This document shows, in pieces, positions 4,944 through 20,814 of a DNA stretch of 64,000 bases. The position numbers and the translations under genes are program-made. Location of the stretch: positions 46,825 through 110,824 of IMG/VR virus record IMGVR_UViG_3300020156_000003. One strand, 5' to 3'. Position 1 is the stretch's first letter; each line of letters begins with the position of its first letter. A model generated the notes under the pieces. The model did not search any database, was not told the DNA's origin, and was given only the letters and a program-made list of their open reading frames with translations. Origin of the DNA: a virus. Taxonomy: Duplodnaviria; Heunggongvirae; Uroviricota; Caudoviricetes.

Positions 4944-4979
4944 GATCAGTCAGCGCTGAGTTATAGTGGTGACTCGATC
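4944..4979. promoter_or_regulatory. Split operator flanking a -10-like element, upstream of phoH.
   Basis: GATCAGTCA-gcgctgagTTATAGTg-GTGACTCGATC. Confidence 0.45.
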
Positions 4980-5933: not shown

Positions 5934-6647
5934 ATGATTGAACACACGCACGGCGCCTTCTTCGGCTCGGCACTCGATTTCCACCAGTGCGAGATCCTGG
6001 CGATCGCAAACATCGACCGGCGGCTCCTGGCGCACGAAACGGCCCTCTACGGCCAGAAATGGTTCGACTACCGACCACTCCACCCGACGCTGGCAACCTA
6101 CCTGTTCGCGCATCACTACAATCGCGCATACGGCGCCTTCATGGGGCAGTATTTTGACCACAAGAAGCGCTTTATGGCTGCCTTCAAGGGCAAGGATGTG
6201 ATGGCCGCGCGCGAGAGGAAATCATTCTGGAAGCTGCGTCAGAAGTGTGACGAACTCGGCGTCCGGTACGATTTTTTCTGCCGCGTCACGATGGAGTGGT
6301 GCGCAATCAACGGCTGGAAGCAGCCGCCCCGGCCGGCACACGCGGCGACCAATGCCGAGCTGCTGGTCTACGTGGCAAACCGCTGGGCGCAGGAATGCCG
6401 CGGGAGGATCCAGTGGGCGCACGACCCGCGCTACACGACGCGCAACTGGTGCGGCGCACCCGACCAGGCCGCATACGAGGCGCACGTCTTGGACGCGATC
6501 AAATCCAAACCGCTGCCGCAGTACGCGCTGCACACTGCTCTATATGTATTTGACGCCCTTCGCATCGAAGCGGCGATCGAAAAGCTGCCGGAGTCGGCAG
6601 TCGACCAGGCGGTCGATTTTGCAGCGAAAGAAGTAAGTAAGCAGTGA
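5934..6647 (+). CDS. Hypothetical protein
   Basis: Long ORF with an AGAGGAA RBS. No domain recognised. Confidence 0.5.
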   Translation: MIEHTHGAFFGSALDFHQCEILAIANIDRRLLAHETALYGQKWFDYRPLHPTLATYLFAHHYNRAYGAFMGQYFDHKKRFMAAFKGKDVMAARERKSFWKLRQKCDELGVRYDFFCRVTMEWCAINGWKQPPRPAHAATNAELLVYVANRWAQECRGRIQWAHDPRYTTRNWCGAPDQAAYEAHVLDAIKSKPLPQYALHTALYVFDALRIEAAIEKLPESAVDQAVDFAAKEVSKQ

Positions 6648-17754: not shown

Positions 17755-17788
17755 TATGCCGTAATGCTTTGATTTCATGATGATTTGG

Positions 17789-17837
17789 GCGGCCTGCAAA
17801 GCCGTCTACGCCGGTTCAATTCCGACCCCCGCCTCCA
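17789..17837 (+). other. attP core: the 3' two-thirds of a tRNA-Cys(GCA) gene (anticodon arm to CCA). The 5' half is absent.
   Basis: Anticodon stem GCGGC/GCCGT with loop CUGCAAA. T-loop GGTTCAATTCC. Acceptor 3' strand CCCCGCC followed by discriminator U and CCA. Only about 49 nt of tRNA are present. Confidence 0.7.
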
Positions 17838-17863
17838 AATTCTTCCTTGTAATTCAAGGACTT

Positions 17864-17890
17864 AAACGCCGCCGCAAGGTGGCGTTTTTC
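17864..17890 (+). terminator. Terminator-like hairpin after the tRNA fragment.
   Basis: AACGCC-gccgcaaggt-GGCGTT followed by TTTTC. Confidence 0.5.
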
Positions 17891-17918
17891 ATTCCAGACC
17901 CGCCTAGACCGGCCAAAA

Positions 17919-18024: not shown

Positions 18025-19191
18025 ATGGCAACAAAAAGACAAACGCCAGGCGGCAAGTGGGAATACATCATCAAGCGCTCCAAGCTCCTGGAGAAGCCGA
18101 TCTACCTGACCTTCGATGACGAGGCCGAGGGTGACGCCTACGTCGCCAAGCTCGAAGCGCTCCTAGACCGCGGCGTGGTGCCGCACGAATACCAAAAGCA
18201 AGGCGAGAAGTACGTGCTGCTGGCCGAGCTGATTGCGGACTACTTGGTGCAGGTGCATGTGTCCGATCCGGACAGGAAAATTCTCAACGTGATCTATGCC
18301 CGCATCGGCAAGACCAGTCTGCGGCTCGTCAATTACGCTTGGGTGGAAGGCTGGATCGGCGACATGAAGACGCAGTTGAATTTGAAGCCAGGTACGATTC
18401 GTCACCACGTCGGCGCGCTCGGGCGCTGCTTCGATTGGGCAAGCCGGCGCAACGTCGTGCCGCTGGTGATCAACCCGATCAGGCAACTGCCAAAGAGCTA
18501 CGCGCAGTACAGCGAGCGCGACGCGCAACTGGCGCGCGCCGTCGACGACGACCATGTGCGCCAGGAGGACGAGGAACGTGACAGGCGTCTCGAAGAAGGG
18601 GAGGAGCAGCGGATCCGGCAGATCCTCGACGGCCACAAGCCTGAAGGCCGGCAGCGGGCAATGGCGCTGCGCTATCAGGGCGCCATCGAGCTGCTGTTCG
18701 ACCTGGCGCTGGAGACGGCGATGCGAATGCGGGAAATGTTCACGCTGACCCTGGATCAAGTCGACCTGGCGCGAAAGACGGTCTTTCTCGACAAGACCAA
18801 GAATGGCGACAAGCGGCAGGTGCCGCTGTCGTCGGTGGCGCTGTCGCGCATTCAGCGCTACATGGAGCAGGTGAGGGCCGCAGAGCGCGGCATGGAGGGG
18901 TTCAGCTTCGAGGGCAAGCAGCTCTTTCCTTGGTGGGATGGCTCGCTTGAGCGGGACGAATTGCGGCGCATTACGGCGCTGTTATCGCGCCAGTACGCGC
19001 GTGTTTTTGAGGCGGCCGGCTGTCACGATCTGCGCTTTCACGACTTGCGCCACGAAGCCACCAGTCGCTTCTTCGAGCGCACGCAGTTGCAGGACTTCGA
19101 GATCATGAAGATCACCGGCCACAGTTCCACACGGATGCTGCGGCGCTATTCCAACCTACGCGGCAGCGTGCTGGCCGACAAGCTCTGGTAG
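18025..19191 (+). CDS. int: Tyrosine recombinase (integrase)
   Basis: C-terminal catalytic motifs LRFHDLRHEATSRFFE...ITGHSSTRMLRRYSNL. Lies adjacent to the attP core. Confidence 0.9.
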   Translation: MATKRQTPGGKWEYIIKRSKLLEKPIYLTFDDEAEGDAYVAKLEALLDRGVVPHEYQKQGEKYVLLAELIADYLVQVHVSDPDRKILNVIYARIGKTSLRLVNYAWVEGWIGDMKTQLNLKPGTIRHHVGALGRCFDWASRRNVVPLVINPIRQLPKSYAQYSERDAQLARAVDDDHVRQEDEERDRRLEEGEEQRIRQILDGHKPEGRQRAMALRYQGAIELLFDLALETAMRMREMFTLTLDQVDLARKTVFLDKTKNGDKRQVPLSSVALSRIQRYMEQVRAAERGMEGFSFEGKQLFPWWDGSLERDELRRITALLSRQYARVFEAAGCHDLRFHDLRHEATSRFFERTQLQDFEIMKITGHSSTRMLRRYSNLRGSVLADKLW

Positions 19192-19491
19192 CTCGTAGGC
19201 GGACAAATCGGCGCGCGGGGTCTTTTCCCTGCCGCGCTTCTTGGGCGATACCATAGACGGCACGCGCGCCGCCGTTTGCTGCAATTCTTCCTCCACGCCC
19301 GCTTTCGCCAGGCGCTCGCGCATCTGGCGCCTGGCTTCCGCGCGCAGGTATTCCGTCAAGTCATCCAGCAGAAATACCCAGGCGCGGCCAATGCGCGCAC
19401 CCGGCAATGCGCCGGAGGCGGCCAGCTTCAAAGCGGTCGATTTATCGACCTTCAAGAATTCGGCGCATTCGTCGATGTCCAGCGTTTTCAT
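19156..19491 (-). CDS. xis: Excisionase or AlpA-family HTH protein.
   Basis: LKVDKSTALKLAASGALPGARIGRAWVF matches the excisionase/AlpA HTH family. GGGAG RBS. Convergent 36 bp overlap with int. Confidence 0.7.
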   Translation of the reverse strand: MKTLDIDECAEFLKVDKSTALKLAASGALPGARIGRAWVFLLDDLTEYLRAEARRQMRERLAKAGVEEELQQTAARVPSMVSPKKRGREKTPRADLSAYELPELVGQHAAA

Positions 19492-19554
19492 GTGACTCCC
19501 TGTTCCAGTGACGGAGTGGATCTTATACGTGGTTGGCGCTGAAAGCAAGTCAGC

Positions 19555-19569
19555 AATGACTGATCCGCA
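19555..19569. promoter_or_regulatory. Operator-like palindrome upstream of xis.
   Basis: AAGTCAGCAATGACT. Confidence 0.5.
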
Positions 19570-19698
19570 AGCGCGCGAACGTACCTGCTGAATTGTGGGA
19601 TGACCTAATAGCTAGTTTGTAAGCCACTGTTACAGATAGATAATTTGTCAGTTCGGGAATATATGCCGCAACTGAAAAACGACAGCAAAAGGAAATGT

Positions 19699-19727
19699 TT
19701 GCACGCGGCAAAGGACGCATTTATAAT
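19699..19727 (+). promoter_or_regulatory. Sigma70-like promoter (TTGCAC-17-TATAAT) directly upstream of the LexA box.
   Basis: 17 nt spacer between the hexamers. The TATAAT ends 19 nt before the SOS box. Confidence 0.45.
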
Positions 19728-19746
19728 CGGCTACTGATCCATTCGA

Positions 19747-19766
19747 TACTGTATAAACGTACAGTA
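19747..19766. promoter_or_regulatory. LexA (SOS) box
   Basis: TACTGTATAAACGTACAGTA has the form CTGT-N8-ACAG. This is a near-perfect palindrome matching the gamma/beta-proteobacterial LexA consensus. Confidence 0.7.
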
Positions 19767-19807
19767 ATGTTAGAAAGGATACTGGAAAAATCAATTGATG
19801 TGGGAAA

Positions 19808-19833
19808 ACAAAAACGGCGCCTGGAGGCGCCGT
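19808..19833 (-). terminator. Rho-independent terminator of the repressor gene.
   Basis: On the minus strand, GGCGCC-tcca-GGCGCC followed by GTTTTTGTTTTC. Confidence 0.65.
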
Positions 19834-19854
19834 CGGGAGGGGAAAATGGGTGGA

Positions 19855-20313
19855 TCAAAAGTTCTCGGGCTTCAGGGTGTCAATCACGGCCAAGAGCGCG
19901 GCACGCTCGGTATCGTTGCGCAACCGCGGATTGGGCACCTTCGACTGACGGATGCACTCGATGATCTCCACTTCATTTTGCGTCAGCGTGAGCGACGGCG
20001 TAAAGATGATGTCTTGAAGCGCTTCCCAAGTGTCCGGCTCGTATTCTTGCATGACCAGGCGGTACAGGTGCTTCGGATCGACGCCGAGAGCGCGCGCCAT
20101 CGGCCCAACCTTCGACATCGGCAGTTTGGTCTTGCCCTGCTTGATCATCGTGATGATGTTGGGCTTGTTAAAGCCTGCTTCGCGAGCAATCTCCAATTGA
20201 GATTTGCCGCTAAGATCGATTTGCTGGCTGATGTAGTCAGCCACAGTGATGTTGTTGCTGCGTGATTTTCTCGACTTCACGCTCCGTTCTTCGGTAGTGG
20301 ATTCCATAAGCAT
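19855..20313 (-). CDS. XRE-family HTH repressor, CI-like.
   Basis: HTH QLEIAREAGFNKPNIITMIKQGKTKLP. It is divergent from the early operon and lies next to int/xis. GGGAG RBS. Confidence 0.8.
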   Translation of the reverse strand: MLMESTTEERSVKSRKSRSNNITVADYISQQIDLSGKSQLEIAREAGFNKPNIITMIKQGKTKLPMSKVGPMARALGVDPKHLYRLVMQEYEPDTWEALQDIIFTPSLTLTQNEVEIIECIRQSKVPNPRLRNDTERAALLAVIDTLKPENF

Positions 20314-20331
20314 CTGCTCCCATTTTTGTTG

Positions 20332-20401
20332 GACTTACAGCAAGTCAAAAGTGAATTATTCGTTACGTTGTGATTATAGTCACTTAAAAGTTTTTCGTGA
20401 C
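20332..20401. promoter_or_regulatory. Immunity-region operator cluster carrying the repressor promoter on the minus strand.
   Basis: GACTTAcagcAAGTCAaaaGTGAAT, followed by TATAGTCAC-N13-GTGACTTAT. On the minus strand this reads TAAGTCAC-N13-GTGACTATAAT, the same architecture as the type A promoters. Confidence 0.55.
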
Positions 20402-20528
20402 TTATTCATGTTGATAATGATCAAAGGATTCTACAGCAATCCCCAATGAGGGAACACCGTTTTACCCTATATGTAGTAGGTGGCTCCATTGGATAACCCG
20501 AATCTTTGCCGGGTTGTCGGTCTGCAAT

Positions 20529-20552
20529 AGTAAGTAATAAGTGAGCTATAAT
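20529..20552 (+). promoter_or_regulatory. Type A promoter repeat, copy 2. The early rightward promoter.
   Basis: AGTAAGTAATAAGTGAGCTATAATCG. Confidence 0.6.
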
Positions 20553-20610
20553 CGTTTTGTGCTATCGCAAGCACTTGAATAAAATCAATGTCAAAGGAGT
20601 GTTCCGTCCC

Positions 20611-20814
20611 ATGCAAACCGCCACCGCAGTATCGTCTGCCGCACTGACCCAAGCCATCAGCGCCGACCAGCTCGCCGACCTGATCGAAGAATCCAAGATC
20701 ACTGAAACGCTTGATCTCGGATTCTCGTTCGTTCACAGGGCAACCCACCCCGAACATGGTCGCATCATCCTGGTTAGCACCGCTGGCGAACAACACGCCG
20801 TCCTTACCGTTTAA
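20611..20814 (+). CDS. Small protein, first gene of the rightward operon (Cro position).
   Basis: AAAGGAG RBS. No HTH recognised. Confidence 0.4.
   Translation: MQTATAVSSAALTQAISADQLADLIEESKITETLDLGFSFVHRATHPEHGRIILVSTAGEQHAVLTV

Follow-up and report, generated by a model that had tools for sequence, protein, structure and literature searches.

A candidate LexA operator behind the cI-like repressor gene of a large SSU5-related temperate phage and its possible role as gate of an antisense promoter

How does a temperate phage whose repressor appears unable to cleave itself register damage to the DNA of its host? As a rule, DNA damage leads to prophage induction either by self-cleavage of the phage repressor or by way of LexA-controlled anti-repressor proteins. 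We addressed this question for a 64-kb stretch (hereafter the window, whose positions are used throughout unless a relative is named) of a 110,838-bp metagenome contig (ENA ERZ27257314, k141_474806), in which a candidate LexA (SOS) box, TACTGTATAAACGTACAGTA, is found at 19747..19766, in the 363-nucleotide (nt) non-coding spacer between a cI-like repressor gene and the excisionase gene xis. LexA boxes have been described in the regulatory regions of several prophages, namely at tum of 186, antC of N15 and in the Gifsy prophages (PMC3121763), at coi of P1 (PMC4713147), in GIL01 (PMC4551915) and at pO/oop of lambda (PMC5869508). Our analysis of the locus points to a plausible LexA-gated antisense promoter, which would share the logic of the known LexA-boxed prophage switches and differ from the anti-repressor modules among them in having no downstream gene.

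The box has the form CTGT-N8-ACAG with extended palindromic flanks and is the sole occurrence of that motif in the window. When compared with the E. coli consensus TACTGTATATATATACAGTA, 17 of its 20 positions are identical, the 12 flank positions match without exception and the mismatches are confined to the central spacer. For the bare core CTGT-N8-ACAG the expectation is 0.77 per window, and 60 of 100 shuffles contained one or more copies, so that the core alone is not significant. For the extended form TACTGT-N8-ACAGTA only about 0.0013 occurrences are expected per 64 kb and an exact match was obtained in none of 1000 Markov-1 simulations, which bears out the description of a near-consensus, extended palindromic LexA box given in an earlier note on this DNA. 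In a scan with a weighted LexA consensus, TACTGTATAAACGTACAGTA was the single site of the window scoring above 23/32, and another 17.6 kb of phage DNA (L060, L061) contained no second LexA box, which makes one copy in 81 kb in total. Judged by its letters, TACTGTATAAACGTACAGTA lacks none of the sequence features that mark high-affinity LexA operators in the CTGT-N8-ACAG class, and we infer that the palindrome is a genuine host LexA operator, acquired specifically in this phage lineage. Relatives of the phage sit in the genomes of Burkholderiales (Massilia, Ramlibacter, Methyloversatilis, Rubrivivax and Noviherbaspirillum), so that its host would also belong to this order, and the CTGT-N8-ACAG class of LexA is the one used by most beta- and gamma-proteobacteria (PMC3323433, PMC6595937).

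An identical 20-mer was found in 31 unrelated viral contigs ranging from 34 to 67% GC, where it often adjoins a second LexA box in tandem; this number of occurrences is far above chance for a sequence of that length. In eight contigs of 62-67% GC the 20-mer lies on the -10 element of imuA (ImuA NF033429, 226 bits, confirmed in L033), a classic LexA-regulated SOS gene. Because it stands at imuA promoters and beside second LexA boxes, the 20-mer is in use as an SOS box in nature. As a separate observation, in L035 (~2025-2315) and L050 (12677-12928; ~60% GC) it is located directly upstream of a conserved open reading frame (ORF) of 83-96 amino acids (aa) with the pattern M..KPPLT.ERL..I......ELLWEI.RLRA..., whose products are candidate LexA-controlled small phage proteins. 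These data also bear on the idea that the palindrome serves a different regulator, of phage or host, as operator and only looks like a LexA box. Phage operators are often palindromic, and in one relative, L003, a comparable position is occupied by another palindrome, AAGTGTATAAAAATACACTT. We nevertheless find this explanation hardly credible, given that the palindrome exists in a single copy in the 81 kb of phage, that the phage's own operator is a different and abundant motif (described below), and that the exact 20-mer is the one employed at imuA promoters and in tandem SOS-box arrays.

Two promoter-like elements, one on either side of the box, are directed towards each other. The first, P(+), reads TTGCAC-17-TATAAT on the + strand at 19699..19727 (TTGCAC 19699-19704, TATAAT 19722-19727), with a predicted start at ~19734; a promoter scan places it as TTTGCA-18-TATAAT with a consensus match of 10/12. 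Its -10 element is perfect and its spacer measures 17 nt. The distance of 19 nt between this -10 and the box agrees with the coordinates that had been given for it earlier, whereas the accompanying claim that the box overlaps the + strand promoter has to be corrected: by consensus match only, the box occupies ~+13 to +32 relative to P(+) and abuts instead the -10 of a weaker promoter-like element, P(-). The latter reads TTGATT-16-TAACAT on the - strand at 19767..19794 (8/12 match), is positioned directly after the cI terminator and is aimed at xis, and here the box, again by consensus match only, spans ~-6 to +14, over the start site. At the level of consensus the box is thus within or next to promoters, so that bound LexA could hinder RNA polymerase.

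P(+) lies past the stop codon of cI, at a distance of 128 nt, and is convergent with the gene, being aimed at the 3' end of cI and then at the + strand early genes. There is no AGTCA-N4-TGACT operator, the core of the phage's own motif, within 150 nt of P(+), and a strong promoter-like element without phage operator would fit a response to LexA rather than to the phage repressor. The rho-independent terminator of cI (- strand, 19803..19834; hairpin 19834-19813, T-run to ~19803) is 46 nt away from the box, which is therefore found just beyond it, as previously proposed, and the xis ATG is at a distance of 255 nt, close to the original estimate of about 250 nt. Read on the + strand, the cI terminator is a hairpin without U-tract, and for this reason a transcript from P(+) would run on antisense through cI. 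No + strand terminator was detected from 19734 to the early genes, none between box and cI and no discrete terminated small RNA, and Rfam returned no match in 19400-20700. A 10-bp inverted repeat with two G-T pairs (TGATCCATTC / GGGTGGATCA, at 19735-19744 and 19847-19856) brackets the box and the cI terminator and closes the predicted RNA fold; the fold of 19734-19860 has a z of -4.7, which is mostly due to the DNA palindromes of box and terminator. The repeat could be a product of chance or the trace of a segment insertion.

Considering that LexA-controlled anti-repressors are the usual solution for phages with non-cleavable repressors (PMC3121763, PMC4713147), the question arises whether the box serves a small, unrecognised protein of this kind, comparable to Tum, AntC or GfoA. 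An ATG is present near the box on both strands, at 0 nt on the + strand and at 26 nt on the - strand, and the ORFs beside the box encode 56 aa (19720-19550, - strand) and 65 aa (19767-19964, + strand). A third ORF, of 139 aa, lies on the antisense strand of cI (19847-20265, + strand). Its ATG is preceded, at 5 nt, by the Shine-Dalgarno-like GGGAGGGG, a good site for ribosome binding, and the frame is open in the L100 lineage described below. For the 56-aa and 65-aa ORFs, no homologues were found among billions of proteins, their GC content at third codon positions (0.39-0.44) contrasts with 0.63-0.81 in the genes checked around the module, and their codon log-likelihoods of -0.64 and -0.91 per codon compare with +0.15 to +0.56 for neighbouring phage genes. 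Public gene calls contain no gene in the cI-xis spacer. The 139-aa frame was rejected as a gene, since its codon score equals that of the antisense frames of all other genes and it is interrupted in several relatives; in the L100 lineage its identity is 0.47-0.54 versus 0.72-0.81 for the sense protein, i.e. it diverges faster than CI. The spacer around the box is non-coding by all tests applied, and we regard an anti-repressor encoded by any of the three ORFs as very improbable. The earlier note had suggested an antisense or anti-repressor transcript into cI; its first half is partly borne out, as a near-consensus promoter points there and a sister lineage is built alike, and its second half finds no anti-repressor ORF to support it.

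The question of how induction is triggered depends on the repressor itself. The cI-like gene (19855..20307, - strand) encodes 150 aa in public gene calls, which start at the second Met, and 152 aa, the length reported before, when counted from the first ATG at 20313; the protein is short by either count. No record was found for the 152-aa form, and the 150-aa form led to the source contig alone. It belongs to a conserved family of ~140-155 aa proteins and gives weak Pfam matches to HTH_3 and HTH_19 and none to Peptidase_S24. In its AlphaFold model (mean predicted local distance difference test score 81), which is all-helical including the C-terminal part, residues ~20-100 superpose on the DNA-binding domains of 434 Cro, 434 repressor and P22 c2 at 1.4-2.2 Å. 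Searches with the full-length fold yielded meaningful matches to the helix-turn-helix (HTH) domain only; Stl and DdrO as whole-length fold matches were discarded, as a template-modelling score of ~0.4 and a root-mean-square deviation of 14 Å are not meaningful. By its profile matches and predicted model the repressor is an XRE/434-Cro-like HTH protein without S24 domain, in line with the original remark that none could be recognised. Because of this missing domain and the all-helical model, self-cleavage of the lambda type is not supported.

The putative operator motif of the phage is AAGTCA-N4-TGACTT. One copy, AAGTCAGCAATGACTG, is located at 19547..19562, ~55 nt upstream of the xis ATG, and a copy of this type is kept at the same place in relatives. 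The core AGTCA-N4-TGACT has 13 exact occurrences in the 64 kb against ~0.03 expected (starting at 1912, 11823, 19548, 20927, 23053, 29541, 35803, 41771, 42612, 48950, 51802, 52868 and 61699), and with up to three mismatches the dispersed operator reaches 57 matches versus 14.8 +/- 3.3 in shuffles, degenerate copies being found for example at 4947, 20342, 20388, 20532, 30677 and 53832. Three of these belong to the divergent control region of ~300 nt between cI and the early genes (operator region 20342..20547), at 20342-20357, 20388-20403 and 20532-20547, the last of which abuts a TATAAT at 20547-20552. With few exceptions the copies are intergenic, abut or overlap the TATAAT boxes of + strand genes and are conserved at syntenic places in relatives. 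The motif is probably the operator of a master repressor with a dispersed regulon like that of P1 C1, and we tentatively, and with a question mark, propose the 150-aa CI-like protein as that master repressor.

We further asked how the arrangement is distributed among relatives. CI homologues from viral, genome and metagenome collections gave 97 loci comprising 548 kb, in which the synteny gk, orf215, int, (xis), cI, orf67, cobT, cobS is conserved, and two sites scoring at least 28/32 were detected in these 548 kb, where ~0 are expected. In L100, L136 and L137, whose CI proteins are 72-81% identical to each other and one of which is a 113-kb contig of the same synteny, LexA-type boxes (CCTGTATATCCATACAGTG, CCTGTGAATACATACAGTG and ACTGTGCATTCATACAGTG) lie past the cI terminator, and an antisense-strand promoter, TTGTYT-17-TACAAT, is placed 16 nt beyond the box and aimed back at cI. 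Box and promoter are conserved in this lineage whereas the adjoining stretch is variable. Terminator, box and promoter towards cI thus recur in the same architecture as in the window, in unrelated sequence, and the L137 promoter can transcribe only antisense cI because the next gene converges on cI. A third placement around the repressor gene is seen in L071, where a strong box, TACTGTTTATCCATACAGTG (319-338), in the divergent region between the homologue of the 67-aa ORF and cI lies behind TTGTTA-18-TATACT, which points towards cI.

Relatives in Klebsiella (pJN2-26 type) and E. coli (Cyrano, PhiR41_1), of 108-110 kb and with CI 40% identical, have the common synteny polymerase-cobS-cobT-orf-cI-int and carry their LexA boxes at the int promoter (L062 7465-7484 in Klebsiella pJN2-26; L063 and L064 3117-3136 in Cyrano and PhiR41_1). 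There the box follows TTGATC-17-TAATAT, 26-27 nt before the int ATG, and has been kept although the region is ~72% identical between the Klebsiella and E. coli groups. In these phages int is convergent with cI, the two genes sharing 6 nt at the 3' end of cI, and induction of int by the SOS response would therefore also send transcription against cI. The boxes in L100, L136, L137, L071 and the enterobacterial relatives are analogous to the one in the window, not orthologous. We found no paper on LexA in SSU5-type elements or on the enterobacterial int box, and the gene order differs in the Rhizobium relative RHEph10, which yielded no informative site of the alphaproteobacterial form GTTC-N7-GTTC. 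Independently of the boxes, the spacer between cI and xis or int is a hot spot of unrelated insertions (L001 6480-8700, L002 from 6520, L003 6490-8100), which bring AT-rich genes in L001 and an Arc/ribbon-helix-helix-like gene in L003; the palindrome of L003 is perfect and lies at 6533 next to TTGACA.

Taken together, we favour a reading that in our judgement has a little less than an even chance of being correct, namely that LexA gates an SOS-inducible promoter whose transcript enters cI in antisense orientation and continues in the direction of the early genes. In a lysogen, LexA on the box would block P(+) and probably P(-). Upon DNA damage, RecA-stimulated self-cleavage of LexA would free the box and the stronger P(+) would fire, giving a transcript that has no coding potential, is predicted to pass the cI terminator and would extend antisense through the entire repressor gene towards the early operon. 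Collision with the oncoming cI transcription, together with antisense pairing, would then lower repressor synthesis. The level of the repressor, presumed unable to self-cleave, would drop, the dispersed AAGTCA-N4-TGACTT operators would be vacated and xis and the early genes released. Read-through from P(+) into the early operon may contribute, as a transcript that gets past cI would reach co-directional genes: the first early gene, which encodes 67 aa of no known family (20611..20814, + strand), and then cobT and cobS, both on the + strand. A broader proposal, of which we are more doubtful, is that ~110-kb SSU5-related temperate phages with a non-cleavable repressor and dozens of operators sense damage through a LexA-gated antisense promoter behind cI, without an anti-repressor protein, and that this solution arose at least twice, in the phage studied here and in the L100/L136/L137 lineage.

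Several observations speak against antisense control of cI by LexA. The -35 element of P(+) agrees with the consensus at only three or four of six positions, and the box centre, at ~+22 of P(+), is further downstream than in most LexA operators, as a result of which repression of P(+) might be leaky; P(-), with the box covering its start site, has the more classical operator geometry. No box is present downstream of cI in L001-L028, nor in 67 of the 70 loci L066-L135, and because it is absent at this position in these ~95 relatives it is a lineage-specific feature and not one of the family. The closest available relatives, with CI at most 71% identical, are among those without a box at the orthologous position (L027 and L028 included), and in closer relatives there is no conserved antisense promoter downstream of cI. 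None of the 25 relatives inspected from viral and genome collections shows a box behind cI. The promoter of the L100 lineage reaches a match of 8/12 only and fails a stricter scan. Some Betaproteobacteria have non-canonical LexA motifs (PMC4951493), and the host of this phage is judged from its relatives. Finally, the LexA-linked oop RNA plays a minor part in the SOS induction of lambda, which runs via CI cleavage (PMC2327240).

The geometry of P(-) raises the question of whether LexA controls excision instead, with SOS giving a transcript with a long leader (~270 nt) that reaches xis. The position of ~-6 to +14 is a classical one for an operator, and the order of terminator, promoter and LexA box is the layout of the LexA-controlled operons of Gifsy (PMC3121763). 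The enterobacterial int boxes, with TTGATC-17-TAATAT, show nearly the same geometry as P(-), and with LexA boxes on the int promoters of these relatives, the family has repeated cases of recombination genes under SOS control; LexA likewise governs integron integrases (PMC3108266). However, the 8/12 match of P(-) is weak, and xis has its own operator ~55 nt upstream, conserved in relatives without LexA box, where bound repressor would block a transcript arriving from upstream. Moreover, Xis cannot induce the phage alone, and in the L100 lineage there is no gene downstream of the box on the cI-sense strand, for which reason the architecture of that lineage cannot serve xis. We therefore consider control of xis through P(-) unlikely as the explanation of the box, although antisense transcription of cI and control of xis could both be true, as one bound LexA dimer would cover both promoters.

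We also considered that the box binds LexA with little effect or is a relic, either left over from a lost cargo gene or a recent neutral site. The box is lineage-specific and known from one phage, the cI-xis spacer is longer here than in xis-bearing relatives (363 versus ~110-220 nt) and coincides with the insertion-prone spot of L001, L002 and L003, and on both strands the box is followed by an ATG that opens no credible ORF. In addition, when the spacer 19550-19854 was compared with the collected sequences nothing but the box gave matches, i.e. its flanks match nothing else. On the other hand, a perfect 12-base palindrome is very improbable by chance and would decay if neutral, good promoter elements flank the box, and the same architecture is conserved in another lineage. 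On balance we think a box of little or no consequence rather unlikely.

If LexA does gate antisense transcription of cI, the switch would have several partial counterparts. In p95-tum of 186, antC of N15 and dinI-gfoA/gftA of Gifsy-1/2/3, as here, a non-cleavable repressor is combined with a LexA-boxed phage promoter, and in Gifsy the box follows a terminator, as in the window (PMC3121763). These anti-repressor modules drive a small protein, whereas in the phage studied here no credible ORF follows the box and the stronger promoter is antisense to cI; lacking the downstream gene that defines such modules, the arrangement described here falls outside them. P1 is likewise a large temperate phage whose repressor, C1, is non-cleavable and acts on dispersed operators, and it has a LexA site at coi, adjacent to the gene for C1 (PMC4713147). 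In P1, however, LexA controls Coi, a C1-binding protein (PMC4713147), for which there is no equivalent gene here, and unlike in P1 C1 the operator is palindromic and the repressor family an unrelated one with a 434-Cro-like HTH. The antisense RNA oop of lambda is comparable in that its promoter pO carries a LexA site (PMC5869508) and the product is directed against a lysogeny regulator. It differs in that oop is a short terminated RNA against cII, whereas here there is no + strand terminator and the target would be the maintenance repressor gene cI.

GIL01 and CTXphi resemble the proposed switch in that host LexA acts directly on phage regulatory DNA (PMC4551915). In those phages LexA represses lytic promoters, together with gp7 or RstR (PMC4551915), whereas the box described here lies behind the repressor gene, and it is an operator of the phage itself that is present at the lytic promoters. 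A LexA box inside a recombination module, in a geometry like that of P(-), is also seen with integron integrases (PMC3108266) and with the SSU5-type int genes. In the SSU5-type int genes the box stands 26-27 nt before the start codon, whereas here xis is 255 nt away and has an operator of its own.

The surroundings of the switch are those of a tailed phage genome. The contig encodes tail genes, PhoH, a DnaB-type helicase, a primase and an ATP-dependent ligase, along with a DNA polymerase III alpha-type polymerase, RecA, SbcC and CobT/CobS, nearly all genes of the phage being on the + strand, and the phage is a temperate one of ~110 kb that is related to SSU5-type phage-plasmids. The integrase gene int (tyrosine integrase, 388 aa; 18025..19191, + strand) converges on xis and cI, and xis (19156..19491, - strand, with its ATG at 19491) encodes an excisionase-family protein of 111 aa (HTH_17, TIGR01764). 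Upstream of int, a stretch at ~17786-17848 resembles the 3' two-thirds of a tRNA, with an anticodon-arm-like CTGCAAA (which would be Cys-GCA), a T-loop GGTTCAATTCC and an acceptor 3' end ...CCGCCTCCA, and is followed by a terminator at 17866-17892. ARAGORN reported no full tRNA in this stretch and Rfam only a weak tRNA-clan match of 19.7 bits; the phage probably uses this stretch as attP core when it integrates into a tRNA gene. The RecA-family recombinase encoded by the phage (32631-33638, + strand; PF00154, 137.7 bits; UvsX-like in PHROG) could in principle, once expressed, feed back on LexA cleavage. Among the relatives, L018 is a contig of 112,962 bp from an isolate assembly of Massilia sp. 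TN1-12 (NZ_JBJCIU010000006.1) with CI 68% identical, and its length equals that of an entire phage genome in this family. It is possibly a complete prophage, which may be extrachromosomal or have been assembled separately, and its cultured Massilia host could be used for experiments.

The placements of LexA boxes around one and the same module, behind cI, in the divergent region and at the int promoter, vary between members of this family and offer a natural series for the gain and movement of SOS wiring. If antisense control of cI by LexA is true, it would constitute a third route from DNA damage to prophage induction, one acting at the level of RNA, via transcriptional interference or antisense RNA. 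Some SSU5-related phages and phage-plasmids carry antibiotic-resistance genes in Klebsiella and E. coli. For this little-studied group, a LexA-gated antisense promoter behind the repressor gene would, if confirmed, provide a first handle on how its members are switched on.

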